Source of the DNA: Flaccisagitta enflata | Lineage: Eukaryota | Direction: 5' to 3' | DNA: 64,000 nt | Assembly: GCA_965153355.1 (NCBI GenBank) | Contig: OZ231126.1 | Coordinates: 20,708,001 to 20,772,000 of the forward strand | Part shown: piece after piece, positions 3,433 to 35,499 of the stretch | Layout: every line of letters starts with the position of its first letter | How positions within the stretch are numbered: position 1 is the first letter of the stretch | Program-made: the position numbers and the translations under genes | The notes under the pieces: model-generated | Databases searched by the model: none | Seen by the model: only the letters and a program-made list of their open reading frames with translations | Told to the model about the DNA's origin: nothing

Positions 3433-3689
3433 GTAATTGGACAACCCATAGATAAATCGATGTTGGAATGTTTCATTCTGAAGAAATATTTCAGTAGACT
3501 GTCTTCATAGCGGGGTGAAATCCAAATATCGCAGCAGGATGAAATATCTCAGTAGGTGAGATATCTCATATCTCAGCAGAGTATAATATCTGAATACAAT
3601 GACATCAGGATATTATACTATTTAAAGCTTCTTAAGAATTCATGGTTCCATGATATGATACCATCTTTTCACATTCTTGAGATATTCTA

Positions 3690-5169: not shown

Positions 5170-6270
5170 TGAGGCCCAAATCCTAGTCTTGAGGCCCAAA
5201 TTCCAGCCTCGAAGCTCAAAACCCAGCCTCGAAGCTCAAAACCTAGCCTTGAAGCTTAAATCCCAGCCTCGAAGCTCATATCCCAGCCTCGAAGCTCATA
5301 TCCCAGCCTCGAAGCTCATATCCCAGCCTCGAAGCTCAAATTCCAGCCTTGAAGCTCAAATTCCAGCCTCGAAGTTCAAATTCCAGCCTTGAAGCTCAAA
5401 TCCCAGCCTTGAAGCTCAAATTCCAGCCTTGAAGCTAAAATTCCAGCCCTGAAGCTCAAATCCCAGCCTCAAAGCTCAAATCCCAGCTTCGAAGCTCAAA
5501 TCCTAGCCTCAGAAGCTCAAATCCCAGCCTCGGAAGCTCAATTCCCAGCCTCGGAAGCTCAAATCCCAGCCTCAAAGCTCAAATCTCAGCCTCAGAAGCT
5601 CAAATCCCAGCCTCAAAGCTCAAATCTCAGCCTCAGAAGCTCAAATCCCAGCCTCAGAAGCTCAAATTCCAGCCTTGAAGCTCAAATCCCAGCCTTGAAG
5701 CTCAAATTCCAGCCTTGAAGCTAAAATCCCAGCCCTGAAGCTCAAATCCCAGCCTCGAAGCTCAAATCCTAGCCTCGAAGCTCAAATCCCAGCCTCGAAG
5801 CTCAAATCCTAGCCTCAGAAGCTCAAATCCCAGCCTCAGAAGCTCAAATCCCAGCCTCGGAAGCTCAAATCCCAGCCTCAGAAGCTCAAATCCCAGCCTC
5901 GGAAGCTCAAATCCCAGCCTCAGAAGCTCTAATCCCAGCCTCGGAAGCTCAAATCCCAGCCTCAAGACTCAAATCCCAGCCTCGAGGCTCAAATCCCAGC
6001 CTCGAGGCCCAATTTCTAGTCTTGAGGCCCAAATCCTAGTCTTGCGGCCCAAATCCCATTTTCGAAGCCAGAATCCTGAACCCTAGTCTTGAGGCCCAAA
6101 TCCTATTCTCGATGCAGAATCCTAGTCTCCAGGCTCAAATCCCGGCCATGAAGCCTCAAATCCCAGCCATGAAGCCTCAAAGCTTAAATTCCGGCCTTGA
6201 GGCTCAAAGCCTAGCCTCCAGCCTCAAATCCTAGCCTCCAGGCCCTAATCCCAGCCTGAAGGCTCAAATA
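5170..6270. repeat. 20/21-bp minisatellite (GAAGCTCAAATCCCAGCCTC)n expanded inside a dispersed short element
   Basis: Long tandem array. The flanks match the dispersed family seen at about 910-1190, 1830-2080 and 37345-37800. Confidence 0.9.
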
Positions 6271-13828: not shown

Positions 13829-14233
13829 TGTAAGGGCCTATATCTTGCGGGCCTTACCTTCTTCCACGTAGGCTTGAACCCGATCGCTTGATTGAGTTCC
13901 TTTGTAACTAATTAACTATCGAATGTTAATTGATATTTGTCTTCTTAGATTGCTTGGTTCTCTGCTATGATCTAGGCAAAGAAATACAAAGTGGAAGGTA
14001 GTTAACGCGGGACGAAAAAGGGCCTCTGTGCCAGATAGCCAGTTCTAGAGTCTTAGTTAAGTATCCAGGCAAATAAGCCACAGGGGGCAAACGTAAGGGC
14101 TACAAAACTAAATGGTACCAAAACATATCAGACACGAACAGTAAGGCATTTAAATTAAAGCAATGGCACATTGAAAATAGTTTTCATAGTCAGGATTCAC
14201 AGTTCTGCATATTGCACAAAATCGTCGCTCATA
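13829..14233 (-). repeat. 3' LTR
   Basis: Plus-strand TGTAAGGGCC...CGCTCATA. A purine-rich tract lies immediately upstream on the minus strand. Confidence 0.96.
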
Positions 14234-14248
14234 TGCTTCTACCCTTTA
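14234..14248 (-). promoter_or_regulatory. Polypurine tract
   Basis: Minus strand AAAGGGTAGAAGCA directly before the 3' LTR. Confidence 0.75.
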
Positions 14249-14292
14249 TAAATTTTTAGTCCCTAAAAACACGGAATCCTCTCCAACAGAAG

Positions 14293-15896
14293 TTAATTTC
14301 GCGAGCGTGATCTCGCACGGGACTTCGCACGTGAGCGAGAACGAGAGGATGAACTTCTCTTCCTTTTCCTACTTCGGCCTTCGCGCGTATCACCGCGGCT
14401 GCGGGGGCGGGATGGCGATGGGTTGGCGTCATGGTACGCGACAGCGTGTCGCATCTCTTCACCGCCAAAACCACCGAATTTGATGCAAAAATCGTAGAGA
14501 AGCGAGGCGTTAATGTCTCGATGACGAAGCGCGAAATAAGAAGGAGAAGTCGTGTCACCAAACAAACAGGCGCGCCAACAAAACGGACCTCCCGTCATGG
14601 CCTCAGACAGACCGGAAACAGTATCGCGGACACTATTTCGAGAGGCAAGATCGACGGCGTCAACGACTGAGGACGGAGACCAATTGTATTTGAAGAAGAG
14701 GAAATCCAACAACGGACCACCGCGATGAACGAACAAAGTCTTATCGGCGGTCTCGCTGGCAAGAACACGAACAAAATCTTCGAGGACGGAATAGGAGAGG
14801 AAGGTTGAGACATGAAACGTTTTTCTCTTTAGGCGGATCGTGAGAAAGTCCATTTCATCGATTCCCGTCATTTTCTTTAGTCGATAGGTGATGGCGAGAA
14901 ATTTGGACTCCCGTAAGCGTTGGCGGAAGTCAACGACGTCAGAGGGAAGGACGAGGATGCGACTTTCGCCGGTTGCCAAATTGTGCAGCGGCCGATTGTC
15001 GTTGCAGCACGGCTCAAATTCACTCGCACTAGACGGGCAAGTGAGGCGAAGGCGGCGTCGCCTTTTGAAATATTCGCCGATGGGTTTGGAACGAGCTGCG
15101 GCTACTTCCGCTACCTCCAACAACAATTCTGCATCGTCGCCGCAGATGGCTGCAATAACGGCGGCGAAGTCAACGATCTCGATTTCACCTTTTTCGTAGA
15201 GGCAAAGCGCTTCATCGACGGCAAAGCGGGCGCGAAGGGGGTAAGCCTCACGAGGGATGGGGACATTGGATTTGGCGCTTAATAGGCGGATAAATTTCCA
15301 AATGCGCCTTTCCGTCCAACGTTCTGTTGCTTTTGAGTCGTCGTAGTCGTTTTGAAAAAAAACGCTCTTCCGCATTTCCGCCAGAATCGCATTTTTATCT
15401 CGCGAATGAACCGCTGCGAGACGCATAACGTGGGCAACTTCGTGAGATCCGAAATTGCGGGCCGTTTCATCAATCATGTTCCCATCATTTGCATCTCCCA
15501 TGACGTTATCGAGCAAAATGATGGGGTCAACGTCAAAGTGTTTCAAATTGACGACGGTGTGGAGGCGGCTCACCCCAAATATCTGTTGGTAAACCATTTC
15601 AAGCACAAAATCATCGATTGCGGTACCTGTGAAGAAGCTTAAGGCCGTGCGACCAAGACGGTACAGCCTGGCTTTGTCGCCGTCGTCGATATCACGGAAA
15701 CGCCGTAACGCGGTAAGGAAGCGTCGTGATGTGACGGGCGTCCGAGTTGACTCAAGGCGCGAGAGGACATCGTAGAAGTCGTCGGGTTTACAGCGAGCTA
15801 GTTTACTCACTACCCGATCAATAAACTGATTTTCACTACGGGTGTCGTTGTCGCTGTTGTTGTTGTTGTCGCTGTTGCTGTTGTTGCTGTTGTTGC

Positions 15897-15927
<31 letters not shown>

Positions 15928-18234
15928 GCTGTTGCTGCTGCTGTTGTTGTTGCTGTTGCTGCTGTTGTTGTTGCTGTTGTTGCTGTTGTTGTTGTTGTTG
16001 TTGTTGCTGTTGTTGCTGTTGCTGCTGCTGTTGTCGTTATTGTTGTTGTGTTCGGCGTTGTTATTGTTGTTGTTGTTTTGACGCCGATAGGTCACTGACC
16101 GACTTCCCGAATCGGAACGACGCGAACCCGAGGCAGAGCCATCAGGCCGAGGATGAGGAGGAGGCATCAACGGAGGAGGATACGTGCCTCTGTCTGCAGA
16201 AACATCATTATAGCGAAAGGCAGAGCGTGAACGGGAAGGGGGCTCATGAAAGGTAGAAGTAAGACGGGAAGAAATAGAATATTGTGAAGAGGAATTACCA
16301 AGCAACGACATTGTCAAAGGTAGAAGCGGTAAAGCAGCAGATTTTACTTTAGACTTATCAGTGGTGAGATGAGAGATAGGATAGGAAACAGGATTTTTGG
16401 AAGAAAGAAGCGATTTATCATTCCCATCAAGGTTTTTAGAATAGAAGGGGGCAACATCAATTTCCTTAACAACTTTCATCGATTCATATTCATCAATGCA
16501 ACCAATTTCACTTTCAGGTTCACTCTCACCCTCATTGACGTTTTTTCCATGAGAGCTATTGCGCAACGCCGAGCGTCTCTGATCCGGACTAGGAGTTGCA
16601 TCCATTCGATTGGCCGAAGATGACGACGAGGGGGAGGCGGAGGGGGACGAGGAAGAGGAATGATGACGCGACACGACCGGCATTTTGGCTTTAACAACCA
16701 AAGAATCTTCTTGAAAGGAAACTTTGCGGCATTCGTCGTCGCTACGATCGCTAAGCTTCCGTTTTGGCGCCGTTTTATCGGTAGACAACGCCGCAGGCGT
16801 TATCTTTTCAGCGGCAGGGATCGCGATAACGACACGACCGAGACAATCGCGATCAGGGGGGGAAGAAGATGAACCGGCGGATTGAGTAGAGGGAAGGGGA
16901 AGAAATTGAGAAGAGGCCGGCACGTAAGTTTCTTGCATGATGGTGCGTTTGCTATCCCATTGAGAGCGAAGAATGGCGCAAACGATTTGTTTTTCTCTTC
17001 TTCTAATCATCTCTTTCTCTTCAAAGGTGGCGACCTTGTCGCGGACGTCGTCCCATTTTGCGAATACGCCATCGACAGTCTCACGTTGTTTGGGGGTTAA
17101 TTCTGATGGGGGATCGCAGAAGGGGGAATTGCCGGCTCTCATGTCCATCAAATCACAAAGAGCTTTGACCATTTCGGTAGCAGAGTGGCTGTCAAAACTC
17201 AATTCCTCGTCGCAGACAAGCGCAAAGATCGAAGGGCAGACACTAATCATGTCTGCCAAGCCGGTGGCAGTGTCAAGTCCAATCAACGCATCGTGACCGC
17301 AGTAGCTCAATGCTACACCGGAGAGGCGGCCTTTAATTTCGCCGTAATCGGCCAAATGATTGCGAAGTTTGGGTCGTTTGTCGACGACGACATTTTCTTT
17401 GACGAATTCATACTGGAATTTGAGAGATGTGGCGCCGAGGATACCGCGATTTTTGCTTTCATGACAAGATGCCATAAAAACGCGGAGCGCTTCTGGGCCA
17501 CGGGCGAAGTTGGAGAGGAAGGCATATTGGAGGCCAGTGTCAATGAAACGAACATTTTCGATTTGGTTTTCCTCAAGTCCGAGGGACTTAAGGAGAGAAG
17601 GAAAATCGCCGGCAATCGCGTTTCCTGCGACGATAATGTTCCAATGGGTGATTACTTTTATGATGATTTCGTAATCACCTTCGTTTTGGAGACTGGTGGG
17701 GGGGCCTTTTGGGAGTCTTTTTAGTCCACTTCGCATTTGCAAGACGATGACTTTTTTGTCGTTATTGTGACGATACGCGAGCTGGATAGTCGCGCCTTTG
17801 TCTTCCTGATCGAGGCCGACGAAAATAGGTTTGGGGGACTTGTCGGCGATTTGGAGAAGGGGCGTGAGGTGTTGTTCGGCGGCATCATACGAACGGACAT
17901 GAACAATTTCTTTTGGGGTCAGTTTATCAAGAGTCACGCCGGGGGTCTTCAACTGACGTTTAAATTCGTAATCGAAATATTGACCTTCGTCGATTGTGGG
18001 GGAGGGCCTAGACTGACCGCGGTACGGGGGAACGTCCTCCATACAATATCGGATTTTGTCTTCCAAATGAGACTCGACCGGAATGACAAGCGCGGCACCA
18101 TCTTCGTAAGGATTCGGGACGGGCGTGGGCAGTTTAAATTGAGTCCCGTCAGGATAGAAATGACGTAGCCACGTCGCTTCTTCATCCCGCTTTTTCTGTT
18201 TGTCTGTTCTGTTTGTCTCTTTCTTTTTGGGCAT
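14293..18234 (-). CDS. ORF3, about 1313 aa: DEDDy 3'-5' exonuclease domain, S/N-rich linker, helical region, degenerate second exonuclease-like domain and RS tail
   Basis: Uninterrupted ORF between pol and the PPT, first ATG at 18234. ExoI FVGLDQE..ATIQLA, ExoII AGNAIAGDF, RFIDT, SLK, ExoIII YCGHDA. No signal peptide or transmembrane segment is evident, so it is not env. Confidence 0.88.
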
Positions 18235-19530
18235 TATCAACTTGGATAGAATCCAAATTGAGGACGCGGAAAAGAGTATATATGTAAGAATTGAACTCCT
18301 GACTAAGAGTTTGAAAGCAAAATGGGGTAAAGTTACGCGGGGAAAAGAGCGTGTTTCATTTCAAATAAACTTTTCATTTCAAATCATATCATTCATTTCA
18401 AAACAGAGCCACTTTAATTTATAACGAATCTTCATGGATATTCCGGAATTTCAGAGTGTTTCCATTAAATAACTCTATAAATGAAAAGGAGAAATTGGTA
18501 ATTAATTCATTTGAAGGCTTCTTTGCATCAAGAAATCGTCCCTTGTGATTCGACCTTCCACCAGAGTTGACAGCCTATTATAAAAGATGAGAAATGTTGT
18601 ACCATCTTGATTGATAAAAGGATTCGATATGTGCAAATACCAAATCATTTCCATATGATAAAATGAATCATCCAATCACTCTTCATTCACTGCGCTTCTT
18701 CATGTTCTTCTAACATACCCAATCCAAATTCCATATTTCCAAGTTGGCGTTTTGCAGTAAGGATTACCTCGTATCCAAGCGTGGTAACATCAATGTTCGG
18801 TTTTCCCGCTCAAGTTCAAGCAGGGGGTAAATCTTTTAAACGACTACCTAAAACATCTGGTAAATGGTAGAGATTAAGGTACCTGAAGGAAAAACCTACT
18901 AAAGGTTAGTAAGTTACCAGTAATTGAAATCTCGAGATGGCCAATTCTGGATGTAAAGTTGTTGCGCAACGTAACTTGAGATGGTGTTTGTGTCCAGGTT
19001 TTCTTCATATTGAATCTTGGAACTTGATGCCCATCGTGATGTTACTAACTAGCCCAGGAAAAGGAATAGGAAGGGCACAGGAACCCCACCATAGCTTGGG
19101 GATTCCGGAGGCCCAAACATGGCATGAACAGACAATGAACATATTTACAAAGTACCATGTGAACAATGATACAGATTGATGTCAGAGGGGGGGGGGCCAA
19201 TGTAAACGACTGAAGAACAGCCATTCAGACGCTGATATGGAACAATCGTGGGGGGGGGTAACAATCATGGGGGTAACGACAAATCCCGTGACAAAATCCA
19301 CGGGGGGGGGGGGGAAACATTTTAAATCCAAATGGCAGTGAAGAGGAACAACGAAGGGGGGGGGGGGGATATTGAGCATCGAGACAGAAGCCATAAATGC
19401 AATAACAGAGTAAGAGTAGCCAAGAAAGCAGGGGGGGGGTGTACTATGCTAGATGCAAATAATACGATTAACGAGCGAAAATTGATAGAAAAACCATAAC
19501 GTGAGAGTTAAAGCTATTCAGAAGAACAAC

Positions 19531-22500
19531 TTAATCCTTTGGAGTGCTTGCGGTTTGAGGTTGAGGTTGCGGATTGGGCGCCGAACTGCTTGGAGCGGCA
19601 GCCTGAGGATCTCCGCTTTGCCAGAAATAGCTGAAGGGGCGTAGTAGGAGTGAAGATTGATTTGCGCCTTGCGTGCTTTCCGGGGTGCTGATTGCGGATG
19701 ATGTGGACGGTTGTTGGGCGACCCTGATGTTTTGAATATCGTCTTTGTTTGGGACGAACGGCTCCTCTTCTTCCTCGAACACGTCCATGCTTGCGATTCG
19801 TTCCCGAATGAGATCTGCTGAACTGAAGGAAGCGAAAACGTCAGGAAGAGATTCGTCGCTTTCGGTCTCCTGCGATGTCGTGCGACGGTTCATCGATCTA
19901 ACGCGTTGCCCAACTTTCACGACAGCGTCTTTGGCTTCGGACCTTCGCTGCTCTTCCCGATTCTGTTGGAAACGTGTTCTCATGGAAGGAGCTGGCGGAG
20001 GACGGCTTACCGATTTTGGGCGAACCGCTTTTGGAGGTGGGTGGGACATCTCGGCAGAAGAAGAGGCTGGCGGCGTTTTGAGTGGGGCTGCATCTTCCTC
20101 CACTGGGATCAATTCCGGCGTTGTTCTTTTCCTCCTGTTGCGGGTTGTGGTTGCCGGCAAGTCGTCTGTTGAGGGTGGGACGCTGGCTTGATCGGCATCC
20201 GTACGCGAAGAAAGCGTTGGGCTGCTACCTGTTGGATCAATGGGCTCGGATTTAGGGCTTACCTTAATTAAGAGTTCGGATGGCGATGCCATCGAAGCAG
20301 CCGTAGGAGAGAGTGCCGCATAGAGTGGGGCAGCGGGGGCAGATTCGTCCGGAGACGAGTCTGGAGAAGTTTCATCAGGGGGAGCAAGTAGGGCGGAGTT
20401 GCCCGTTGCGGAAGCGAGCTGACCAGAGTGGCCCGATGTGGTGACTGGGAGCTGCGACGCTGGAGGGAGCGGCAACACTTGCGGAGGTTGTGTTGTTGGC
20501 GGAGATGGCGTCGTGGGTGGAGGCGGCGTTGCTGGTGGCGGAGGAGTCGGCGTTGCCGCAGGCAATACCGGGGCTGGCGTGAGGCTTTGGAGCGTTGCTG
20601 GGATAAGAGCCAGGGTGCGTCCTCTCGTTGGTCTGAGAATTGGTTTTAGGTTGGCCAGTGGGAGGTCAACAGTGGTGGTTGGAGGCGCATCTGGATCATC
20701 GGAATATGAGGGACCGATAGTCTTTCCCTGGTCTTCCGCTTCGGCCTTCTTAAGTTGCTCGTAGTTGCGATTGACCAGCTTCCCATCTGTCCTTTCGCAG
20801 ACATACGTGGTGCCAGGATTGCCTGAAGGGTCACGTCGACGTCTTTGGACCTTGAGGGGGCCGGACCATTTTGACTGAAGTTTGTGACGCGTGCCATCTG
20901 GCACACGTTCGTAGACGCGGTCGCCTTCCTCAAGCGGCGTATGTTTCACCTTCCGGTTGTACGCCTCTACATCTTTGACCCGTTGGGAATCAATGCGCTT
21001 TCGAGCTTCTTCGTGGATTTCCTCAGTTCGTTTTCGGACCTTTTCGATGTAGGCTTTGCTGTCTGGGTCCCTGACCGTAGAGGTCTCTGCGGGAACCGCA
21101 AAGGTAGGAAGCGGAGGGTCCCTTCCGTACATGAGGAAATAGGGCGTCATCTTGCTGTTGTATCGTGGGGTGTTGTTGTAGGACCATTCGACGTAAGGGA
21201 GATGCTCGACCCAGGAGTGTCCGTATTGAATGAGCCGCTTTCTCAAGTCTTTAATCAAGGTTCGATTGAACCTTTCAACGTGACCTTGCGACTGGGGTCG
21301 GTAGGGGATGCTGGTGCGTTTTTGTGCTCCCTTGACCTTGCACATATCCTTCAACAGGTCAGAGTCAAATTCGCCTCCATTGTCCGACGTGAGTAGGCGA
21401 GGTGGCCCGATGATGCATGTGAGGTCCTCAAAAGCGCGGCATACACCTCTGGTGTGTTTGTCCTTCAGTTTGAAGAGCTTCACGTATCCAGAGAACACGT
21501 CGATGAAGACCAAGACATGATGGAATCCAAGGGAAGCCGTAGGCAAGGAGATCAGATCGCAGACCACATGGTCCCAGACGTTTTCGGCTTTAACCGGGAT
21601 ACGGGGCGTGCGGTTTGCAGGAAGGGGTTCGCGCTCTTGGTCACAAACCTTGCAGTTCTTGATGAACCTCCTGATGTCCTTGCTGAGGGATGGCCACGTA
21701 GCGTACCTGTTCACCATGAGGAGCATTTTGTCATGAGATGGGTGTCCAGCCATGTATTCGCCGTGGAGATCTTCCAGGACCGATTTTGTCATGGATGGAG
21801 GGATGACGGCTTGGAGGATGTCAAGATGACTGCATTCGCTGTAGGCCTTCTTGTAAAGAATGCCATTTTGGAGAATGAACCACCTTCGATTGGAAGAGTA
21901 CCATCCATCTGGGAAGTCGTCTGGGATACGTTTGCGAGCTCTAAGGAAGCTTTTGACGGTAGAGATTGTTGCGTCGTCGTTCTGAGCTTTGCGTAACATA
22001 TCTTCATCTTCCTCGAACGCATTGAAGCGGACTGCTGAGAATTGGTCCTCGCACGTAATGGCAAGGAATGCAAACTCGTCACTGTCCTCGGCGATTTCGT
22101 CATCGTCATCGCCACGACGACTCATCGCGTCTGCGTCGGCATGAGACTTGCCTTCCTTGTAGATCAACTCAAAGTCGTAGGAGTTGAGTTCGATTGTCCA
22201 CCGGGTTCGTCTTCCAGTGGGGTCCTTCCTTGAGTCGATCTTCTTCCACGCTAATAGGGGGCGATGGTCGGTTATGGCAAGGAATGGGGCGTGGCGCAAG
22301 TAATGAGCATTCGCGCGGACCGCGCAAAGGAGAGCAAAGTACTCACGGTCGTAAGTTGACCAATTTTGCTGAGGACGGCTCAACTTCTTAGAACCATATG
22401 AGATGACTTTCTCTTTGCCGTCGACCTTTTGGGTGAGTACATATCCGATGGCGGTCAGGGATGCGTCGGATTTAATGATGAAAGGCTTGGCGAAGTCTGG

Positions 22501-24696
22501 GTAGCACATAACGTTGTTGGAAGTCAGGTAGTCCCTCAAGGTTTCGAAGGCGTGTTGGTGAATGCTGGTCCACTTCCATTCCACATCCTCCTTGGTGAGC
22601 TCTGTGAGGGGTTGGGCGATGTCACTATAGCCTTTGATGAAGTGGCGATAGTAGCCGGTAAGACCAAGGAAAGTCCTTAGCCTCTTGATGTTTTCGGGCG
22701 TCTTCCATGATTTGATCTTGTCCATGTTGGCCGGATCAGGACCAATCCCGTACTTGCTAAGTTTGTGCCCTAGGCACACAACAGAGTCTTGAGCGATGTG
22801 GCATTTGGACGGGTTGAGCTTCAACCCGGCCTTTTCCAGCGCCGTGAGGACTAGGTCCAAGTGGTGAAGATGATCTTCCATGTTGCTGTCGGCGACCAAA
22901 ATATCGTCGAGGTAGGAGATCACATGTTGAGAAGGGAGTCCCCGCAGCACGAGTTGCATGAGCGCCGTTAGGTAGCTTGGAGAGTTTTTTGCGCCCATAG
23001 GGGCCACTAAATATTCCAAGTGCATCGTCTCCGTCGAAAACGCGAAATATTTGCAGTCCTCGGGAGCAATCGGGATCTGCCAAAAGCCTTTGGTCAGATC
23101 GAGAGAGCTGAAGATGCGGGGATCCTTGAGACGTTGGATGCTGTCCTCAATTCGGGGAAGTGGGTAGACGACTTTATCGCATCTCTCGTTCACCTTGCGG
23201 AAGTCTGTTAGGAAACGGAAGCCTCCAAACTTCTTTTTGGCGAGGAGGATAGGCGCAGAGTAGGGGCTTGTAGACGGACGGACTAGTCCATCTGCCATCA
23301 TTTCAAACGCCTGCTTGTCGATAGCTTCCCGAGCTTCTGGGGTGGTTCGGTAAGGGGAGACAGAAATAGGAGGGCCAGGTGGATTCTTCATGTGTGCGCG
23401 GTATTGGATCACAGATGTCTTTCCGTAATCTCGGTCGTGTTGGCTGAAGGCACCCTCATGTTTCACTTCCAAGAGATTCTTGAGTTGGTCTTTGTAAGGT
23501 TTTGCTTCCTCCGAGATGGTTGAGTAATCGATGCTGAGGGGTTTAGCACCAGGCGGTATTCTCTTTCTTCTTGCCCGTGGTGGAGGGGTCCAACCACTTC
23601 GTGGAGGGGGGGTGTCTTGTGGCTGTGGGGGATCGAGAATGTCCACTTGGTGGGCTGCGAGCGTTTGGGAATTGGGAGGTCTGTCGCAGACAATTTCCTC
23701 CAGTTCTTCATCATCACTATCGGCTTCAGAGGAGTTGCCAGATTCGTAAGCCGAATCATCGCTAACATAATCATTGACCATCTCTGTCTTGTAGCAATAT
23801 TTCTCAAGCTCAAAGGGGTCAAAGAATTCTGCATAACCCAAGACGCGACCGGCTTCCAATTTGACATCGGAGTCTGTGCAGTTCATGAGTTCAGTGAGGA
23901 ACATGCAGTCCCTGACATCGGAAATCGCTCTGCATGTGGCAGCTTGTTCGCCTTGGTCTACAAAGGGCTCCGTGGCCACCATTGTTGATGCTGCTTTGAT
24001 GTGGTCTTTGTCTGCCATGAGTTCGACCATCTTGTGCATTTTGCTGTTGGCTGGGATAGTGACGTCTTCGTGAATTCGGTAGAAGCAGCCGGAGAGAACT
24101 GTACTGTCTTTGACCAGGGGAGTGGGGGCCCAGTCTCTGAATTCCAACAGACCCTCAACAGTGTTGAGAGTGGCTTTGAATTTTGAGAAAAAGTCCCAAC
24201 CAAGGATGACGGGCTGAATGAGACCTCTGACAACACGACAATTGATTGCCATGTAATTGTTGTTAATTCGGAATGGGACATTGACGATACCGATGGTTAA
24301 GACTTTTGACCCGTTGATTGCTGTGCCGCGAGTTGTCAGATTTCTGTAGGGGCGTTTTCTCAGGGCAGGGCTATCTCTGAAGAAATCTTCCGAGATAGTG
24401 CAACGGCTCGAGCCCGTGTCGCCAAGGGCAAGGACCTTTTGGTACTTGCCATCAAGCCCTGTCTTTATGGAGATCGAGAATTCGGCCTTCCACTGGGGTC
24501 TGTAGTCGCCTGGAGGGGGATCTGGGGATTCGGGGTAAGTGTGGGATTCTGGAGTATCCGGTATCAAGTGGGGATCAGGGGGTTTTGGAAAATCTGCTGA
24601 GTTGAGGGAGGGGGCGAGTTTTGCAGTTCCGATCTCTGTGCGCCCCTTGACAGAGTCGGGAGCTAGTTTTCCGGATTCCGACCTTGGCGGGCCAGT
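19531..24696 (-). CDS. pol: Pol polyprotein (aspartic protease, RT, RNase H, integrase, long P/S/T-rich tail)
   Basis: Protease LGDTGS. RT SLDLTKGFWQI and YLDDILV. RNase H SDAS...RE...TDH...DAMSR. Integrase HGEYMAGH...CKVC, CDL, SDNGGEF, GHVERFN and a GPY/F-like KWSGPL. No stops. Confidence 0.97.
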   Translation of the reverse strand, partial: TGPPRSESGKLAPDSVKGRTEIGTAKLAPSLNSADFPKPPDPHLIPDTPESHTYPESPDPPPGDYRPQWKAEFSISIKTGLDGKYQKVLALGDTGSSRCTISEDFFRDSPALRKRPYRNLTTRGTAINGSKVLTIGIVNVPFRINNNYMAINCRVVRGLIQPVILGWDFFSKFKATLNTVEGLLEFRDWAPTPLVKDSTVLSGCFYRIHEDVTIPANSKMHKMVELMADKDHIKAASTMVATEPFVDQGEQAATCRAISDVRDCMFLTELMNCTDSDVKLEAGRVLGYAEFFDPFELEKYCYKTEMVNDYVSDDSAYESGNSSEADSDDEELEEIVCDRPPNSQTLAAHQVDILDPPQPQDTPPPRSGWTPPPRARRKRIPPGAKPLSIDYSTISEEAKPYKDQLKNLLEVKHEGAFSQHDRDYGKTSVIQYRAHMKNPPGPPISVSPYRTTPEAREAIDKQAFEMMADGLVRPSTSPYSAPILLAKKKFGGFRFLTDFRKVNERCDKVVYPLPRIEDSIQRLKDPRIFSSLDLTKGFWQIPIAPEDCKYFAFSTETMHLEYLVAPMGAKNSPSYLTALMQLVLRGLPSQHVISYLDDILVADSNMEDHLHHLDLVLTALEKAGLKLNPSKCHIAQDSVVCLGHKLSKYGIGPDPANMDKIKSWKTPENIKRLRTFLGLTGYYRHFIKGYSDIAQPLTELTKEDVEWKWTSIHQHAFETLRDYLTSNNVMCYPDFAKPFIIKSDASLTAIGYVLTQKVDGKEKVISYGSKKLSRPQQNWSTYDREYFALLCAVRANAHYLRHAPFLAITDHRPLLAWKKIDSRKDPTGRRTRWTIELNSYDFELIYKEGKSHADADAMSRRGDDDDEIAEDSDEFAFLAITCEDQFSAVRFNAFEEDEDMLRKAQNDDATISTVKSFLRARKRIPDDFPDGWYSSNRRWFILQNGILYKKAYSECSHLDILQAVIPPSMTKSVLEDLHGEYMAGHPSHDKMLLMVNRYATWPSLSKDIRRFIKNCKVCDQEREPLPANRTPRIPVKAENVWDHVVCDLISLPTASLGFHHVLVFIDVFSGYVKLFKLKDKHTRGVCRAFEDLTCIIGPPRLLTSDNGGEFDSDLLKDMCKVKGAQKRTSIPYRPQSQGHVERFNRTLIKDLRKRLIQYGHSWVEHLPYVEWSYNNTPRYNSKMTPYFLMYGRDPPLPTFAVPAETSTVRDPDSKAYIEKVRKRTEEIHEEARKRIDSQRVKDVEAYNRKVKHTPLEEGDRVYERVPDGTRHKLQSKWSGPLKVQRRRRDPSGNPGTTYVCERTDGKLVNRNYEQLKKAEAEDQGKTIGPSYSDDPDAPPTTTVDLPLANLKPILRPTRGRTLALIPATLQSLTPAPVLPAATPTPPPPATPPPPTTPSPPTTQPPQVLPLPPASQLPVTTSGHSGQLASATGNSALLAPPDETSPDSSPDESAPAAPLYAALSPTAASMASPSELLIKVSPKSEPIDPTGSSPTLSSRTDADQASVPPSTDDLPATTTRNRRKRTTPELIPVEEDAAPLKTPPASSSAEMSHPPPKAVRPKSVSRPPPAPSMRTRFQQNREEQRRSEAKDAVVKVGQRVRSMNRRTTSQETESDESLPDVFASFSSADLIRERIASMDVFEEEEEPFVPNKDDIQNIRVAQQPSTSSAISTPESTQGANQSSLLLRPFSYFWQSGDPQAAAPSSSAPNPQPQPQTASTPKD
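24611..24672 (-). promoter_or_regulatory. -1 programmed ribosomal frameshift signal (slippery heptamer plus H-type pseudoknot)
   Basis: G GAA AAC (24672-24666) precedes the gag TAG. After a 6-nt spacer, stem 1 is CCGACTCTGT/ACAGAGATCGG. Loop GGGGCG pairs with downstream CGCCCC (24616-24611). The pol frame is open from 24696 and is -1 relative to gag. Confidence 0.85.
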
Positions 24697-26120
24697 CTAG
24701 ACTCCTTCTTTTGGAGAAGTGAGAGCAGGCGGGCATCCAGGGTGGCATCATCCTCGCTGTCGTTGCTGTATTCATCGGCAGTTTGGATGGCATTGTAATT
24801 GCGATCACCGCGATTTCTATCGCGACCTTGGTTGCGATTGCGATCGTAGTTGCGACCACCGTAATTGCGGTCATCGCTTGGAGTCCTTGGGGTTGGGGAC
24901 CTTCCTCTGCCGGAGTAGCGATCATCGCGTTGGCGACCATTGCTGTAGTCCCTACGGTTGTCCCTGCCGCTCCGATTTTGCTCGTCTCGGTCACGACGGG
25001 AATTGCGATCACGGTTGGGATCTTGGTCACGGCGTGGGGCTTCGCGACGATAATCTCTGTCACGGCTGAAGCTCGGCTCTCGACGAGACTCTTGATCACG
25101 GCGGTAATCTCTGTCGCGACCATAGCTTTGGTCACGGCGGTTGCCGTTGCGATCCCGGTTGTATTGGCGGTCTCTGCTGGGGCTTCCTGAGCTATCGCGG
25201 TAGCGGTCCCTTGAGTACCGGTTATAACCATCACCGGTTGAGCGGCCACGGTCGTCGGAAGATTTTCCTTGCATGGACATATTTCTCACTTCTGTACCAA
25301 GTTGTGCAATAGCGAGTTCGAGGCCGCCGATGCGGTCGTCGGCCATGGCTAGGCCAGTGAAGGCAACTTGTTTGGGCTCCTTTATTGGTTCCTTGTCTCT
25401 CTGGGTCATTTTCACTCTTGAGGCAAGTTCCATGGCGTTTTCAATGGTGCGATCTTGCTTCGTCAGGCTCAAGTCAATGTAGTCCTGATAGGGGGTTTCA
25501 GGGAGAGACTCCCTAAACCTGAAGAAGTACGCCCATTTCTTGCCGTTGTCGTCGAGCTCTTTTTCGTAGTTGTCGACCGCACGTTTGACACGAGTTGCCA
25601 AGGCCTGGAAACTTTCCTTTCCATCCCAGACAATTTGGGTCTTCATGGCCTTCCATTTGTAGACCTCGTTGGGGTCAACAAGGCGGTCCTTGAGCTGAGC
25701 TTTGGTTTGGTCGTAAGTGAGAGTCGATGGGATTTGTTTGTAGACAGCTCGAGCTTCTGAGTCAAGCTTGATGGGGAGCCAGCTTTTGCATAGTTGCCAC
25801 TTCCTATCATCAGAGGAAGGGTTCATTGCCAGTTTGACAGCGTTTTCGAAGATCTCGAACCACTCGTCTAAGTCATCTACTCCTGAGCGGAAAGAGTCCA
25901 CTGGGATGGAGCTTGCTCTCTCGTTCGTTACCGCCATGGTCGCGGCAAGGGCAGCGGCAGTTGCGGCGTTGGCAGCTGCAGCGGCGTCTCCCTGGTTGGC
26001 GTTTTGGTGGTTGTTGGCGTTGTCGTTGCCAACCATGGGGATTGGATTGTGGGGAGGTTGAGCACCCAGCTGGATCGCGTTTGGGACGGAGGGAATTGTT
26101 GGGGGAAGAGGCGGGGGCAT
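24663..26120 (-). CDS. gag: Gag, 485 aa (capsid-like core, R/D/S-rich basic C-terminus, no CCHC knuckle)
   Basis: Long ORF immediately upstream of pol. Helical capsid-like region includes an MHR-like ESFQALATRVKRAV. It ends at the slippery site. Confidence 0.9.
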   Translation of the reverse strand: MPPPLPPTIPSVPNAIQLGAQPPHNPIPMVGNDNANNHQNANQGDAAAAANAATAAALAATMAVTNERASSIPVDSFRSGVDDLDEWFEIFENAVKLAMNPSSDDRKWQLCKSWLPIKLDSEARAVYKQIPSTLTYDQTKAQLKDRLVDPNEVYKWKAMKTQIVWDGKESFQALATRVKRAVDNYEKELDDNGKKWAYFFRFRESLPETPYQDYIDLSLTKQDRTIENAMELASRVKMTQRDKEPIKEPKQVAFTGLAMADDRIGGLELAIAQLGTEVRNMSMQGKSSDDRGRSTGDGYNRYSRDRYRDSSGSPSRDRQYNRDRNGNRRDQSYGRDRDYRRDQESRREPSFSRDRDYRREAPRRDQDPNRDRNSRRDRDEQNRSGRDNRRDYSNGRQRDDRYSGRGRSPTPRTPSDDRNYGGRNYDRNRNQGRDRNRGDRNYNAIQTADEYSNDSEDDATLDARLLSLLQKKESRLARQGRNPEN

Positions 26121-26225
26121 TGGACAGAGTGCAACTCTATCTTAGTTGGATAATGGAGGTGTTGATGACAAGGTGTTTAAGGCGAAGGAGGAGAGATGGA
26201 CAGCGCTGGGTATGATTATGGGTTG

Positions 26226-26516
26226 TTATTGTGGCGCGGCAAACCCAGCAAGGAGCAAGGACCTCAGCGGAAGAAAGTCAGTTTCGATGATGTAATCGTT
26301 TTCGCTAAGCAAAGTGGAGTTGGAGTCGAATGCGTATTTGAGAGCGGCCAACTCGCGCTTGAGATTAGACCAAGTGCTTTGGGCTGGGGTGAGTAACTTG
26401 TGGCCGCTGTTGACGATTTGTTCCTCCCCGTTGACGATTCTCAAGATGTTGAATCCTATGGCAGCGGGTGACGAGTAGAGGCGAACGATGTATTCGGGGG
26501 GGTTAGCTTCAGCCAT
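26226..26516 (-). CDS. Accessory ORF-B, 96 aa: stand-alone RNase H-like protein, probably catalytically dead
   Basis: From ATG 26516, YIVRLYSSPAAIGFNILRIVNGEEQIVNSGHKLLTPAQSTWSNLKRELAALKYAF...IETDFLPL aligns without gaps to Pol RNase H FIIKSDASLTAIGYVLTQKVDGKEKVISYGSKKLSRPQQNWSTYDREYFALLCAV...AITDHRPL. Confidence 0.85.
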   Translation of the reverse strand: MAEANPPEYIVRLYSSPAAIGFNILRIVNGEEQIVNSGHKLLTPAQSTWSNLKRELAALKYAFDSNSTLLSENDYIIETDFLPLRSLLLAGFAAPQ

Positions 26517-26629
26517 TTTGAGGCGAGTTATTAGAAATGAAGGGGAGTTGGATTCAATGACAATAAAGGACGAGGAGGCCACAATAGAAAATTACAGCAA
26601 AACAAGGCGAAGAGGAACTGTACACCGAT

Positions 26630-27310
26630 TTACACTTGTTGCGATGTTGGCAACGCGAAGGCGAAGATCCTGTTGAAGACTGCCTGGGCGGTTCCCTCCA
26701 CAAAGATGCGAAACTGCGACCTTGCCGGTGCTTCAAACACGTAGTCCCAGGCTTGGAGAACCAACTCCTCGGAGTCGAACAATGGGGTGCTTGTCAGCTT
26801 CTGGACAAAGGCAAGCCACAGCTGATCCGCGTTACCGTTTGGGTTGTCTTCTTTCACGACCAGGATGGCGCAAAAGATGAGTCGGCTGGTGCGTTCGACG
26901 TGGTCACGGCGTCTTGAGGAGTATCTTCCGTGATGGCTGGGGGCCCACAGGGAATTGGGAGTGGCACTGGGACTAGGCGAAGCCTGATCCCTGGGAAGCC
27001 AGTTCCTGTATTCGGCTCTTGGCCTTCTTGGAGGTGAAGGGGAGGCGAGAGAGACAGCGTTTCGGAACCGGTTAGTCCACTCGTCAAAGTCGTCACGCGA
27101 GAGGGGTCTCGAATTGTTGAGAAGACTGGCGACCAGAGGGCTGTGTTCTGCTCCCTGATGGTGGGCCTCAAAACGATATTGCGGGTGTGCAGCTGGGGAT
27201 CTTCGGAATCTGCGACTTGGGCTTGCTGAAGCACGGTTTGGAGCGGAGTTGGATTCAGGAGATGAGGATCTTCGTTGGGATCTTCGGTGTCTTCGATAAG
27301 GAGGGTCCAT
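26630..27310 (-). CDS. Accessory ORF-A, 226 aa: R/S/P-rich N-terminus, Gag-capsid-like segment and helical C-terminus
   Basis: ATG-initiated ORF inside the element. DDFDEWTNRFRNAVSLA...YRNWLP aligns with the element's own Gag DDLDEWFEIFENAVKLA...CKSWLP. Confidence 0.75.
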   Translation of the reverse strand: MDPPYRRHRRSQRRSSSPESNSAPNRASASPSRRFRRSPAAHPQYRFEAHHQGAEHSPLVASLLNNSRPLSRDDFDEWTNRFRNAVSLASPSPPRRPRAEYRNWLPRDQASPSPSATPNSLWAPSHHGRYSSRRRDHVERTSRLIFCAILVVKEDNPNGNADQLWLAFVQKLTSTPLFDSEELVLQAWDYVFEAPARSQFRIFVEGTAQAVFNRIFAFALPTSQQV

Positions 27311-28088
27311 CTAGTCAGATAGACACCAGCTAGGAGGCTAATGTTTCTTATCGTAAAGTTGAGTTGAGCGGTCTCTGTGGCTTAAGTGCCGGGATAAATG
27401 ATACGGATACGGATAAATGATACGATTAAGGGTGATTGGTAAAGGGGCTCTCACTTTGGCGAATAGCATCGGTTATTGAAGAGATAGATTTGCGTAGGAA
27501 CTCCAACCTATGGCAAAACCCAGCGCACGCCTTGAACACGGGTCCGTGAGCAGGTCCAAGGAATGACCACTACATGAGAAGTGCGTCCAGGCTTTGTTCT
27601 CTACTGGAAGTAAAAACGCGTACCTGATCAGGATTTTAGCCAATCAAACTCCGTCAACATTCACAGACTTGTTGAGCGGGGCTTGCGCGAACTGCCACGA
27701 AGAGGGGTTGCCTCATACGCTTGTTAAGGATCCCAAGCGGAAGTCGAAACCGAGCCGGCGCTTGCGGAAGGACTGTTGGACGAATCTAACCAGTATACCC
27801 AGCTTAAAAACGGACTGCGAAAGATCCACAATCCCTATACCACACACTAAGCGCTGAACTCGTCCAAGACAGCAGTTTCGGTTCCACCAGAGACCAGGAA
27901 ATTAGTGAAAGGGGGGAAGAAATCCGTCGTCTTGGCAGCCAGATCTGCAACCAGGATGGCCTATTCAAGGCAGAAAGGCTGTTGCATGAGAAATTACAAT
28001 TCCAGAGGAGTTCCTCAGAAACAAGAGAAGCAAAGGATATGAGAGCCACCTGAGAGAACTGGTAGATCTCTGGAACGGTTCTAAAAAT

Positions 28089-28100
28089 GCCGATGCACCA
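28089..28100 (-). promoter_or_regulatory. Primer-binding site, tRNA-Gly(GCC)
   Basis: Minus strand TGGTGCATCGGC, 2 nt after the 5' LTR. It is complementary to the ...GCCGATGCA-CCA 3' end of invertebrate tRNA-Gly(GCC), recalled from memory. Confidence 0.85.
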
Positions 28101-28102
28101 GT

Positions 28103-28507
28103 TGTAAGAGCCTATATCTTGCGGGCCTTACCTTCTTCCACGTAGGCTTGAACCCGATCGCTTGATTGAGTTCCTTTGTAACTAATTAACTATCGAATGT
28201 TAATTGATATTTGTCTTCTTAGATTGCTTGGTTCTCTGCTATGATCTAGGCAAAGAAATACAAAGTGGAAGGTAGTTAACGCGGGACGAAAAAGGGCCTC
28301 TGTGCCAGATAGCCAGTTCTAGAGTCTTAGTTAAGTATCCAGGCAAATAAGCCACAGGGGGCAAACGTAAGGGCTACAAAACTAAATGGTACCAAAACAT
28401 ATCAGACACGAACAGTAAGGCATTTAAATTAAAGCAATGGCACATTGAAAATAGTTTTCATAGTCAGGATTCACAGTTCTGCATATTGCACAAAATCGTC
28501 GCTCATA
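28103..28507 (-). repeat. 5' LTR
   Basis: Plus-strand TGTAAGAGCC...CGCTCATA. Matches 13829-14233 except one A/G at position 7. PBS abuts it. Confidence 0.96.
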
Positions 28508-32080: not shown

Positions 32081-33360
32081 AAAAATCTTGAAAGAGAATG
32101 GGTCCGCGACTGGGGTCAATCAGCGTTGTCAAACGGTGTTGAAATACGGCGTTGTAAAACGGCGTTGTAATACGGCGTTGTAATACGGCGTTGTAATACA
32201 GCGTTGTAAAACAGCGTTGTAAAACGGTGTTGTAAAACAGCATTATAAGGCGTTTGTAAAACGGCGTTTGTAAACCGGTCGTAGCAAGTTTTAATCAAAT
32301 TGGTGGAAAACTACCGAAATAATGCAACTTTTTTAATTTTAAGAAGGTAGGGTGGTTGAGTAATAAACTGGTTTTGCCGGTTAGCATGCTAAAATCGTGT
32401 TAAATCACTTACAAACATCGAGTTATTTCATTTTGAATCTATATACCAAGTTTTGACCAAATTGGTTGAAAATGATGAAGTTTTGCACAAATATCACTTT
32501 TAGGGTGGTAGGCTGGCCGGCTGGTAGGCCAGTTAGCATGACAAAATCTTTATAAATCAAATTCATATGTTGAGTCCTTCCATTTAGGGACTACATACCA
32601 AGTTTCAACCAAATTGGTTGAAAAATGCCGAAGTTATGCACGTTTTTCACTTTTAGGCTGGAAGGCTAGTTGGGTGGTAGGCTGGTTTGGCTGGTTAGCA
32701 TGCTAAAATCTTTACAATTCAAATACATATATTGAGTCTTTCCATTTTGAGACTTCATACCAAGTTTCAACCAAATTGGTTGAAAAATACCCAAGTTATG
32801 CACATTTTTCACTTTTAGGCTGGTAGGCTAATTGGGTGGTAGGCTGGTTTGGCTGGTTAGCATGCTAAAATCTTTACAATTCAAATACATATGTTGAGTC
32901 CTTCCATTTAAAGACTACATACCAAGTTTTAACAAAATCAGTTGAGAAATAAAAAAGTTATGCACGTTTTTCACTTTTAGGCTGGTAGGCTGGTTGGGTG
33001 GTAGGCCGATATGGCCAGTTAAAAAGCTAAAATCTGTACAATTCAAATACATATGTTGAGTCCTTCCATTTAGAGACTACATACCAAGTTTCAACCAAAT
33101 TGGTTGAAAAGTACGGAAGTTATGCACGTTTTTCACTTTTAGGCTGGTAGGCTGGTTGGGCCGGTTGGGTGGGTCGGATTATAATATACGCATAGGATGT
33201 AAAGCGGCTTACTCTGGTTCAACTTCCCTCCAAATATGAAGCAAATTGGTCAAGGCATTCAAAAGTTAGCCCATTTTTAAAAGTGTGGACAACAACGACA
33301 ACACCCACCCGCCTCGAATTATAGTCCGCGTCGGAATGGTATTCCGTCGCGGACAAAAAA
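32081..33360 (+). mobile_element. Helentron/DINE-1-like non-autonomous element with internal 14-bp and about 140-bp tandem repeats
   Basis: 5' GTCCGCGAC is inverted to 3' GTCGCGGAC. 3' hairpin GTCCGCGTCGGAAT-GGT-ATTCCGTCGCGGAC. Internal tandem units. Confidence 0.6.
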
Positions 33361-35170
33361 AATTGTTTGTCGTCTGTCTCCCTGGCATTTTTTAAAAGTG
33401 CCGATGCATGCGATTTAGGTCTAATGACCTTGTTTATCTTTAAATGGATGTTCAAACTTAAAGGATTGAATTTGCTTAAGGTAGATTGACTTACCAATGT
33501 ACCAGCACTTCTTGCTTTGCCATCGCTCACAGACAAATCTCGGATTCATTCCTTCTTCATCTCGGATACGATATCGTTTGAACGAGTAGTAAGCCATGGT
33601 AAAAGTTTAACTCAATAACGATAAACTAGGATATAAAGGATATGATATATGTCCAAAATATTGATGAATTTCAACAACAGAGCTCTGTTGTAATACTAGT
33701 AAATCTTAAATAGTCTAAAATCATGAATCATATAGAGGCTAACAAAAGTTATTGAATAAAGAACAGTACAGCTTTTGACTATGATTGGAAAAAGACGCAA
33801 TTGGAAAAATAAGCATAGAAAATACTTTAAAAAACAAAGATAAAATAAAAGAAATATGTACAACTTTTCCCCCACAGCAATAGTATCATTAAAACAAAAT
33901 CTTTAAAATTTCAAATTATCAAAAAATTCATGCATTTTATTGATGTAAAAATACACAGTATCCTCCATTAACAAAGTGTTTTTTTTTATTGGTTTTCTGT
34001 TTTTTCAAAAATATAAAAATATATATATATACATTCATATAAATCATTATATGGAACAACTCTGAAAAAATATTTACTATGTTTTCATACATCTAAGATT
34101 GGGAAACAGTTCTTGGAGGGTGTCTGCTGGTTATCACATACCCATTTCTCTATTTGCTCTCATCCTCCCACTTGTTCGTTACCTCTGTGCGATAGAGTGC
34201 TGGTTCGAACAAAAGGCTGACCTTTAAGAGCGTAAACTAAAATGTGATGTTCAAGGCCTGTTCCTATGAAACACGATTACGTTATTGGAAGTAGTGCTTA
34301 GATTCTGGTACCTCCTAGATCATGACTTGCGAATAGTGTCGTGAGCCTAAATGTTGTTCATCAATATCTGTATAGTTGACATGCTATCTGAAAGCCGAAG
34401 CAAACTAGATACAGACCTAACTAGCTAGATATAGTTTAATCCATAGTTTAATCCACACTTGACCAAAAAGCATTCTGAATTGGCCAGAGATTTCTTGCCT
34501 CTGTCACACTCGCAAGACTTATCAACTGCAGACATAAGTATCCTACAGTGTGTATTACACTGCACCAATTTTCCATATGGCTATGCAATACCAAAATTCT
34601 TTCAATCACGAGGAAATTTTGTTATTAAAAGTAGGTTCGTCATTCTCCTTGCCCCCTCCCTTGGTAAATCTTTTTCTGTGTCTGCTTGTTGGCTTCTCTT
34701 AAGTCCCCAATCCCACCATGTCTGTCTTACTCCGCGCATGCCCATCCCCTGCTCTATAGATTCTACCCTCTCACTGCCATTTCAAGGATATACAGTGTTT
34801 TTGCTTTTTTGTTTGGCTCTTCAAATCCGTTTGAGTGAGTTTTAACTGTATGTAACATCCATTTTTTTTTGTTTACCCTGCAGCCTGGTAACTTTTGAAG
34901 AAAAGTGTGTTGCACATATCGATATCGCGAAAGAGGAGCTAGTGTTAAACGCATGCACGCATTCCGATAGGCAGAATATTGGTGAAGGTTTGCGGTCAAG
35001 GGGGGGGAGGAGGAAGGGGGAAAGCGGCGGGAAAAAGATGGCGGTGGAGCTGGAAGAGATGGGACAACATGCGGAATCCTCGTTAGTAAATCATCGAATC
35101 TCAATCTTACTTCAAATTTCCATTGTATGCTCACTCCTCAGATTTGTCCATGACGTCCATGTGTGCTACC

Positions 35171-35249
<79 letters not shown>

Positions 35250-35298
35250 GAACAAGAGAGTCCGAGAGACTGACAGATAGAAAATAATCAGACAAACA

Positions 35299-35399
<101 letters not shown>

Positions 35400-35499
35400 A
35401 CCAAGAGAGTCGGAGAGACTGACAGATAGAAAAATAATCAGACAAACATACTGAAACTCCATTGTATCCTCAAACTCGTCTGTGACATCTGTGTGCTAC

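Follow-up and report, generated by a model that had tools for sequence, protein, structure and literature searches.

A stand-alone RNase H-like open reading frame ahead of gag in a giant Ty3/gypsy-type retrotransposon of Flaccisagitta enflata

ORF-B and the element that carries it

We analyzed a stretch of 64,000 nucleotides (nt) of Flaccisagitta enflata contig OZ231126.1 (GCA_965153355.1, positions 20,708,001-20,772,000), hereafter called the window; all coordinates below are window positions. The window carries a Ty3/gypsy-type long terminal repeat (LTR) retrotransposon on the minus strand, spanning 13829-28507 (14,679 bp, 14.7 kb). The subject of this study is a small open reading frame (ORF) of this element, designated ORF-B, which precedes gag and resembles the RNase H domain of the element's own Pol protein. 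ORF-B comprises 96 codons (26516..26226, minus strand), reads from ATG to TAA, and starts in the context AAAATGG.

ORF-B was compared with the 1573-aa Pol ORF using BLASTP. Residues 9-84 of ORF-B aligned with Pol residues 591-666 at 25 of 76 identical and 43 of 76 positive positions, with an E-value of 5e-11 for the pair. An initial annotation of this DNA had described a gap-free match of about 80 residues to the RNase H domain of the same element; the absence of gaps was confirmed, and the measured length was 76 residues. What had been said there of the active site agreed with the alignment. The first catalytic Asp is replaced by Tyr (KSDAS of Pol over RLYSS of ORF-B). ORF-B retains the Glu, with KRE under DRE of Pol, as well as the second Asp, with ETD under ITD, and it ends 12 residues past the aligned block, well short of the DADAMSR segment of Pol that contains the last Asp. 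The profile search proposed in the annotation was also positive, as ORF-B scored 30.1 bits against the Pfam family PF17917 (RT_RNaseH; cut-off 24.8 bits, E 5.8e-7), with residues 9-88 matching positions 6-86 of the 105-position profile. The score against PF17919 was 20.3 bits, under its cut-off of 29.8.

The domain is usually found inside Pol, after the reverse transcriptase (RT). ORF-B does not occupy this position, and a tblastn search of the window detected no RT-like sequence adjoining it. The gag start codon (26120) is located 105 nt downstream of ORF-B, and the two ORFs share strand and frame, with two stop codons between them.

The other parts of the element, all on the minus strand, are those of a Ty3/gypsy (Metaviridae-like) retrotransposon, namely an LTR pair, a target-site duplication, and gag followed by a pol that encodes RT, RNase H, and integrase. 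The 5′ LTR (28103..28507) and the 3′ LTR (13829..14233) are direct repeats of 405 bp at an offset of 14274. They differ at one base (404 of 405 identical), and GTGG is present at both outer flanks as the target-site duplication. Because the two LTRs are nearly identical, we read the element as young or recently active. A leader of about 790 nt (27311..28102) lies 3′ of the 5′ LTR; it begins with a TGG-led sequence resembling a primer-binding site and contains five short upstream ORFs (uORFs). ORF-A follows (26630..27310, 226 aa), which matches no Pfam family, and then ORF-B and gag (24663..26120, 485 aa), the latter also without a Pfam family. The pol frame (19531..24696) is 1721 aa from stop to stop and overlaps gag by 31 nt in the −1 frame; both genes are intact. 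The order of Pfam domains in Pol is RVT_1, RT_RNaseH, Integrase_H2C2, and rve, and the RNase H domain, the paralogue of ORF-B, corresponds to Pol residues 586-692 (22177..22497). ORF3 (14293..18234, 1313 aa) is located between pol and the 3′ LTR, which is preceded in the sense direction by a purine-rich tract. The host element is an intact, giant, and apparently young Ty3/gypsy-type LTR retrotransposon.

Conservation, predicted fold, and origin of ORF-B

We searched for relatives of ORF-B in a word-indexed collection of 5.8 billion proteins, restricted to lengths of 52-168 aa and to matches passing at E 1e-3. Twenty-four of the 29 candidates were close relatives, representing clusters at 90% identity and standing for 100 member sequences. 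They are 92-97 aa long and 71-97% identical to ORF-B, all share the initial Met, and their ends fall within a few residues of one another. PF17917 was precomputed on 23 of the 24. Five distant relatives of 78-104 aa showed BLASTP identities to ORF-B of 67, 46, 41, 35, and 33%; four of them span ORF-B from approximately residue 1-5 to residue 85-92, and the fifth, P0033, starts later. Disruption of the ORF in most copies, named in the initial annotation as a finding that would count against a gene, was thus not seen, since the same boundaries recur in all 24 clusters and in four of the five distant representatives. The top ESM Atlas cluster for ORF-B was a 92-aa family with 72 members, 96% of which carry PF17917.

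HMMER was also run, without an index or a restriction on length, against 1.84 billion representatives. It returned nine matches: the five distant members of the family, of which the four listed first were given 36-67% identity, two Pol proteins, and two repetitive proteins without visible RT-like sequence. The two Pol proteins were the only ones matched by the family (E 1.7e-7 and 1.5e-4), and both contain repeated RT-RNase H segments. These unrelated proteins, P0029 and P0032, carry three to six near-identical tandem repeats of a thumb-RNase H segment, which are either assembly artefacts or real tandem duplications of the RNase H region in other gypsy-type elements. None of 367 candidates of 169-2000 aa was a relative, and no fused form was found, which is weak evidence. 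Scans of metagenome contigs with the family alignment (129 pattern stretches) and of viral contigs with a second family alignment (76 pattern stretches) yielded no relatives.

The pattern of substitution was examined on a tree of 25 close sequences. With 175 parsimony changes over 96 sites, 15.4 invariant sites are expected at uniform rates (maximum 28 in 20,000 simulations); 37 were observed, and they fall in the predicted strands and in helix A. ORF-B is only 33% identical to its source, yet the start, stop, and length of the family are kept down to approximately 33-46% identity, which argues that it is not a neutral remnant. To judge from these sequences, ORF-B is very probably a conserved protein-coding gene. 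Intact relatives, the absence of any trace of a nested element, and the non-uniform substitution bear out the earlier description of ORF-B as a free-standing pseudo-RNase H ORF of the element and not debris.

The structure of ORF-B was modelled using AlphaFold2 (AF2) with the family alignment (predicted local distance difference test, pLDDT, 88.6; predicted template modelling score, pTM, 0.79). The model contains strands at residues 9-15, 19-28, 31-41, and 75-78 and helices at residues 51-72 and 82-92, in the predicted order β1-β2-β3-αA-β4-αB. An intact RNase H domain has the order β1-β2-β3-α-β4-α-β5-α, and the retroviral connection or tether domain the order β1-β2-β3-α-β4-α, as given in the available part of PMC13524379. 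The complete RNase H fold was not found in the model, and the predicted topology of ORF-B is that of the connection/tether of retroviral RTs. The likeness to elements with two RNase H-fold domains within Pol, drawn in the initial annotation, was therefore apt as regards the fold.

Structures were compared using Foldseek with a second look by VIA. The best matches to the ORF-B model were RNase H or connection regions of RTs, led by that of cauliflower mosaic virus (residues 342-451, Z 10.1), followed by those of xenotropic murine leukemia virus-related virus and Moloney murine leukemia virus (residues 362-468, Z 8.3-8.4), foamy virus (residues 453-558, Z 8.1), and Ty3 (residues 349-455, Z 8.0). 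Cellular RNase H1 enzymes gave Z scores of 6-7.6. The link of the family to solved structures runs through fold comparison only, because a PDB sequence search with the family profile returned no matches at E 0.01.

Catalytic residues have been lost across the family. The position of the first Asp is occupied by Tyr in 16 and by His in 8 of the 24 close relatives, and among the distant relatives, four of which include the position, it is again either Tyr or His (28 of 29 overall). The Glu is changed to Gln in 4 and the second Asp to Asn in 2 of the 24, and the last catalytic Asp, which would lie beyond the end of the protein, is absent throughout. An Asn/His-Asp-Tyr/Phe motif preceding strand 4 is conserved in the family and absent from Pol. 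From these changes, we regard ORF-B as highly likely to be catalytically dead. The predicted complex of ORF-B with Pol residues 275-715 scored 0.00 in two runs, in which controls were not folded and the alignment was not used.

We then considered the source of the family. Every stand-alone member tested was closer to the Pol RNase H domain of the present element (33-43% identity, 47-70 bits) than to the RNase H domains of two other Pol proteins, for which full-length alignments showed mostly 23-30% identity at 14-45 bits. In a maximum-likelihood tree with the two as outgroups, the stand-alone proteins formed one clade (98/95) that joined the Pol RNase H of the present element (100/99). ORF-B is thus likely to be derived from the Pol RNase H of its own lineage.

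When the five proteins of the element were compared with the whole window using tblastn, two extra matches only were obtained, that of ORF-B to Pol RNase H and that of a 35-residue stretch of ORF-A to gag; no further Pol or gag remnant and no nested LTR was found in the window. In the ORF-A motif, 17 of 35 residues are identical to gag residues 82-116. ORF-A has two database relatives only (98% and 89% identity), and one of them, P0035, is frameshifted and switches to the element's other frame after approximately residue 107. From its sequence, ORF-A looks young or fast-evolving. The simplest history is a single event, because the gag-like motif of ORF-A precedes ORF-B as gag precedes pol: one old event would have placed a deleted copy running from gag to RNase H ahead of the complete one, and the RNase H piece would then have been retained.

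An ATG-free tract and the expression of ORF-B

Two features go beyond the initial annotation, the gag-like ORF-A and a tract nearly free of ATG, and the latter points to a mode of translation for ORF-B. The tract (26121..27307, minus strand) extends over 1187 nt from after the ORF-A start codon to before that of gag, and its one sense ATG is the start of ORF-B. Dinucleotide-preserving shuffles gave an expectation of 10.9 ATG (5000 shuffles, minimum 2). The same strand of the tract contains 21 CAT, and the median for windows of the same size across the element is 19 ATG. The interval from the ORF-A start to the ORF-B start (794 nt) is the longest ATG-free run of the 14.7-kb sense strand, and that from the ORF-B start to the gag start (396 nt) is the third longest. 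ORF-A and ORF-B together have no internal Met in 320 residues, compared with approximately 2% Met in gag, pol, and ORF3, and no out-of-frame ATG; shuffling the order of the codons predicts 4.2 (P 0.007).

The five uORFs of the leader (1-43 codons) each have a pyrimidine at −3, and all end before ORF-A. The start context of ORF-A is weak (T at −3), that of ORF-B strong (A at −3, G at +4), and that of gag weak (C at −3 and at +4); the context rules of the host may differ. By analogy with badnaviruses, the ATG-poor tract is a putative signature of leaky-scanning polycistronic translation, and expression by leaky scanning or reinitiation seems to us somewhat favored. The full-length genomic RNA would then most likely serve the translation of ORF-A, ORF-B, and gag. 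Scanning ribosomes would pass the weak start of ORF-A, cross the ATG-free tract, and reach ORF-B, and remaining or re-initiating ribosomes would get to gag. Fusion of ORF-A with ORF-B by frameshifting was rejected, as the ORF-B frame opens 39 nt past the ORF-A stop and the frames do not overlap. Readthrough from ORF-B into gag is unlikely in view of the two intervening stops.

The stretch 26100-27400 was matched in 17 rows of DNA data from 8 studies, comprising marine metagenomes and two runs of organism A. Reads and contigs were placed on 18000-28507 at 85% likeness; the resulting depth should not be taken as copy number. Organism A contributed contigs to every one of the 30 bins of this region. 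In two DNA runs, word depth over ORF-B was of the same order as that over pol (772-1626 and 404-960 in X4; 18-20 and 16-31 in X1). Twelve of 28 indels were placed relative to the ORFs. Nine of these are not multiples of three and all lie outside ORFs (18491, 18889, 19477, 19497, 19505, 19508, 27911, 28056, and 28289); the three inside ORFs are of 18, 3, and 3 bases. None of the twelve is in ORF-B, which makes up less than 3% of the region, and they are not independent, since several come from one contig. Among 40 of 701 substitutions, the only majority substitution in ORF-B is 26312 A>G, a synonymous Leu change (TTG to CTG). The spacer between ORF-B and gag is variable, because one contig has 17 nt in place of 62 nt. 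In poly-A RNA run X24 (approximately 6% of the run), seven reads were placed at less than 90% likeness on low-complexity stretches.

Word depth of organism A over 27477-28178 was 3345-5245, several-fold higher than the 404-960 over pol. The excess may point to solo LTRs, or to members of the element family reduced to the leader.

ORF3 matched no Pfam family, either as the whole protein or in two parts, and matched PDB by sequence in low-complexity segments only. It contains a long Asn-rich tract encoded by tandem repeats of 9-15 nt (15801-16104). The ESM Atlas neighbours of residues 100-420 are clusters of 3′-5′ exonuclease domain proteins in which 50% of the members carry PF01612 (153 shared features, score 0.91). 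A single-sequence AF2 model of this part had a pLDDT of 39.8, too low for use. We treat kinship to 3′-5′ exonuclease proteins as a lead only; ORF3s encoding DEDDy exonuclease are described for LTR elements of bdelloid rotifers in the part of PMC5408684 available. The 1.3-kb spacer between pol and ORF3 (18235-19530) is AT-richer (GC 0.40), and most of the variants in length that distinguish copies fall within it; an internal promoter or a splice acceptor for ORF3 could be located there. The Pol tail after integrase (19531-20900, minus strand) consists of approximately 450-500 Pro/Ser/Thr-rich, low-complexity residues without a Pfam match. Downstream of the element in window numbering are two tandem arrays, one of 13-nt units (32097-32274) and one of 162-nt units (32213-33150), and a long GA/CT microsatellite at approximately 35040-35460, visible as poly-(Ser-Leu) and poly-(Glu-Arg) ORFs. 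Pfam searches of eight flanking ORFs yielded nothing of use in placing the host, and no tRNA gene was found in the window.

Possible functions and comparison with known systems

We propose, with a probability of about 0.55 for the proposal as a whole, that ORF-B is a selectively maintained accessory gene of a giant Ty3/gypsy-type element family in a marine planktonic eukaryote. Its origin would be an old event in which part of the lineage's own Pol RNase H was duplicated, and it would be expressed by scanning. Inside the particle, the protein would most likely take part in reverse transcription in trans, as a binding module without catalytic activity. Its partner would be either the RT/RNase H or the RNA/DNA hybrid, in parallel to the connection domain, which acts in cis; a role in binding either of these is tentative. 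A more specific version, in which connection-like ORF-B joins the RT-RNase H of Pol in trans as the non-catalytic subunit of a two-gene reverse transcriptase and its amount is set by the badnavirus-like leader, is unlikely, though of interest. ORF-B would then serve to position the hybrid, a task comparable to that of p51 or of the connection domain in retroviruses.

Several points weigh against this proposal. Gene callers report open frames only and leave broken copies invisible, so the count of 24 intact among 24 is biased. The relatives are known as protein records, and the position before gag and the ATG-free tract are seen in this element alone. The tree includes one Pol RNase H of the same lineage and has long branches. 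The absence of out-of-frame ATG is not significant for ORF-B alone (0 against 0.76 expected in codon-order shuffles, P 0.41), and the ATG-free rule is not absolute in ORF-B, as internal Met occurs in 3 of the 24 relatives (P0005, P0008, and P0010). The strong ORF-B start and the weak gag start fit simple leaky scanning poorly, and reinitiation or another route to gag may therefore be needed.

Among other functions, ORF-B could be a brake encoded by the element itself, a truncated RNase H-like protein that controls copy number in a dominant-negative manner. It would compete with Pol RNase H or with the second RT subunit, either for the hybrid or for RT, and so limit retrotransposition. The logic is comparable to that of the truncated Gag p22 of yeast Ty1. 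A dead, truncated, and conserved stand-alone paralogue of the element's own enzyme domain is what such a brake would look like, and the strong start of ORF-B relative to the weak start of gag would make it abundant compared with Gag-Pol. An element-encoded inhibitor is, however, hard to maintain by selection down to approximately 33% identity unless it benefits the element, and the family appears highly repeated and recently active, with LTRs identical at 404 of 405 positions and many near-identical contigs. We therefore consider a brake rather improbable.

ORF-B might instead act against the host, binding the element's RNA/DNA hybrids or R-loops without cutting them and hiding replication intermediates from host RNase H, nucleic-acid sensors, and small-RNA pathways. 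Catalysis is lost, yet the fold is preserved, as are those residues near the start of helix A that also occur in Pol RNase H, and the accessory ORFs of pararetroviruses include suppressors of defence, according to the available part of PMC5902531. Hybrids may, however, be bound less well by a protein that lacks the C-terminal third of the fold, and we hold such a shield to be improbable.

The shared frame of ORF-B and gag raises the question of whether ORF-B is the first exon of an RNase H-like-Gag fusion, in which a short intron would remove the two stops. Three formal in-frame GT..AG pairs exist, such as one delimiting a 126-nt interval, and the replacement of 62 nt by 17 nt in the spacer of the variant contig is a difference divisible by three. 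The donors are poor, however (GTCCTT, GTTTGC, and GTTGGC). Each of the 29 relatives is a separate protein that stops at this point, and longer ones were not found; the C-terminal tails of the relatives vary in length and sequence, as protein ends do. Scanning also explains the ATG-free tract better, and a fusion is very unlikely.

We give as little credit to a purely translational spacer, either a long uORF tuning gag or a constraint at the RNA level (packaging or dimerisation), with a peptide devoid of function. The position in the leader just before gag and the ATG-free surroundings would suit it. Conservation at the amino-acid level, however, mirrors the core of the RNase H fold, with 37 invariant sites and conservative replacements, the predicted fold is confident, and length and boundaries are kept at approximately 33-46% identity, where similarity at the RNA level cannot remain. 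Finally, the idea that ORF-B is debris, left by a nested or an older element or by an internal duplication in decay and open here by chance, is largely refuted: the gag-pol order of the ORF-A and ORF-B resemblances does suggest one deleted extra copy, and ORF-A, with a frameshift in one relative, has the look of a young or fast-evolving sequence, but the window holds no other Pol or gag remnant, a neutral remnant at 33% identity to its source would not stay open with fixed ends in 24 clusters and distant relatives, site heterogeneity is strong, and the family is closer to the Pol of the present element than to the Pol of two other elements.

Accessory genes as such have precedents. Giant LTR elements with several extra ORFs are known (PMC7264820, PMC5408684, PMC10309623), and the available parts of these papers describe lineage-specific accessory genes inside LTR elements, as seen here: additional ORFs (aORFs) up- or downstream of gag-pol in plants (PMC7264820), the ORF3s of bdelloid rotifers (PMC5408684), and CERV of Cer1 (PMC10309623). 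In those same parts, none of the accessory ORFs is described as homologous to the element's own RNase H, and CERV and typical ORF3s are expressed from spliced RNAs and located mostly downstream of pol.

The leader resembles those of rice tungro bacilliform virus (RTBV) and badnaviruses, for which the available part of PMC5902531 describes a long leader with uORFs followed by two accessory ORFs without internal AUG before the polyprotein. ORFs I and II are kept AUG-free, and scanning ribosomes reach three starts on one RNA; the AUG-free distance is approximately 900 nt there and 1187 nt here (PMC5902531). These plant pararetroviruses lack LTRs and integrase, and the proteins encoded by their ORFs I and II do not resemble RNase H. 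Unlike in their scheme, the start context of ORF-B is strong, and translation here is predicted from sequence. For LTR retrotransposons, the same part of that paper describes expression of Gag-Pol by frameshifting and gives no case of leaky scanning. In the full-text literature, with subscription journals and supplements outside the scope, we found no description of leaky scanning in an LTR retrotransposon or of a stand-alone RNase H-like ORF upstream of gag. The ATG-free leader suggests an LTR retrotransposon with polycistronic leaky scanning, so far tied to plant pararetroviruses, which would add to the modes of expression known for LTR elements.

The connection domain of retroviral RT is believed to descend from a degenerate RNase H fold, following a duplication or capture event inside Pol. 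The identification of the connection/tether as a degenerate RNase H is credited to Malik and Eickbush 2001 in the available part of PMC13524379. Like ORF-B, the retroviral domain is described in the source as a partial fold without catalytic residues, derived from a gypsy-type RNase H. Unlike ORF-B, a separate gene upstream of gag, it is covalently placed in Pol between the thumb and the active RNase H. In the present element, Pol still has an RNase H of its own, and its catalytic motifs are visible in the alignment.

Errantiviruses ('pseudo' and 'mini' RNase H, available part of PMC13524379) and plant Tat elements (dual gRNH-aRNH, available part of PMC4408406) likewise carry, next to a working RNase H, a second and non-canonical module of the same fold. 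In both, the module is part of the Pol polyprotein, whereas ORF-B is free-standing ahead of gag. In Tat elements, moreover, the extra domain is a captured cellular-type RNase H, apparently active, while the original degenerates, as the same part of PMC4408406 relates; here, the extra copy is the degenerate one and is home-grown.

A home-grown, dead, connection-shaped copy present as a separate gene would mean that the structural role of the fold has been split from the polyprotein, which can be tested with a protein of 96 residues. A two-gene reverse transcriptase, if true, would be an independent, split solution to the step that yielded the retroviral tether, in a living LTR family. For annotation, small RT_RNaseH matches ahead of gag should not be masked automatically as fragments. 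In comparison with known systems, extra RNase H-like modules inside Pol and accessory ORFs in LTR elements are familiar, and what appears new, against the full-text literature covered, is a dead copy of the element's own RNase H as a gene before gag.

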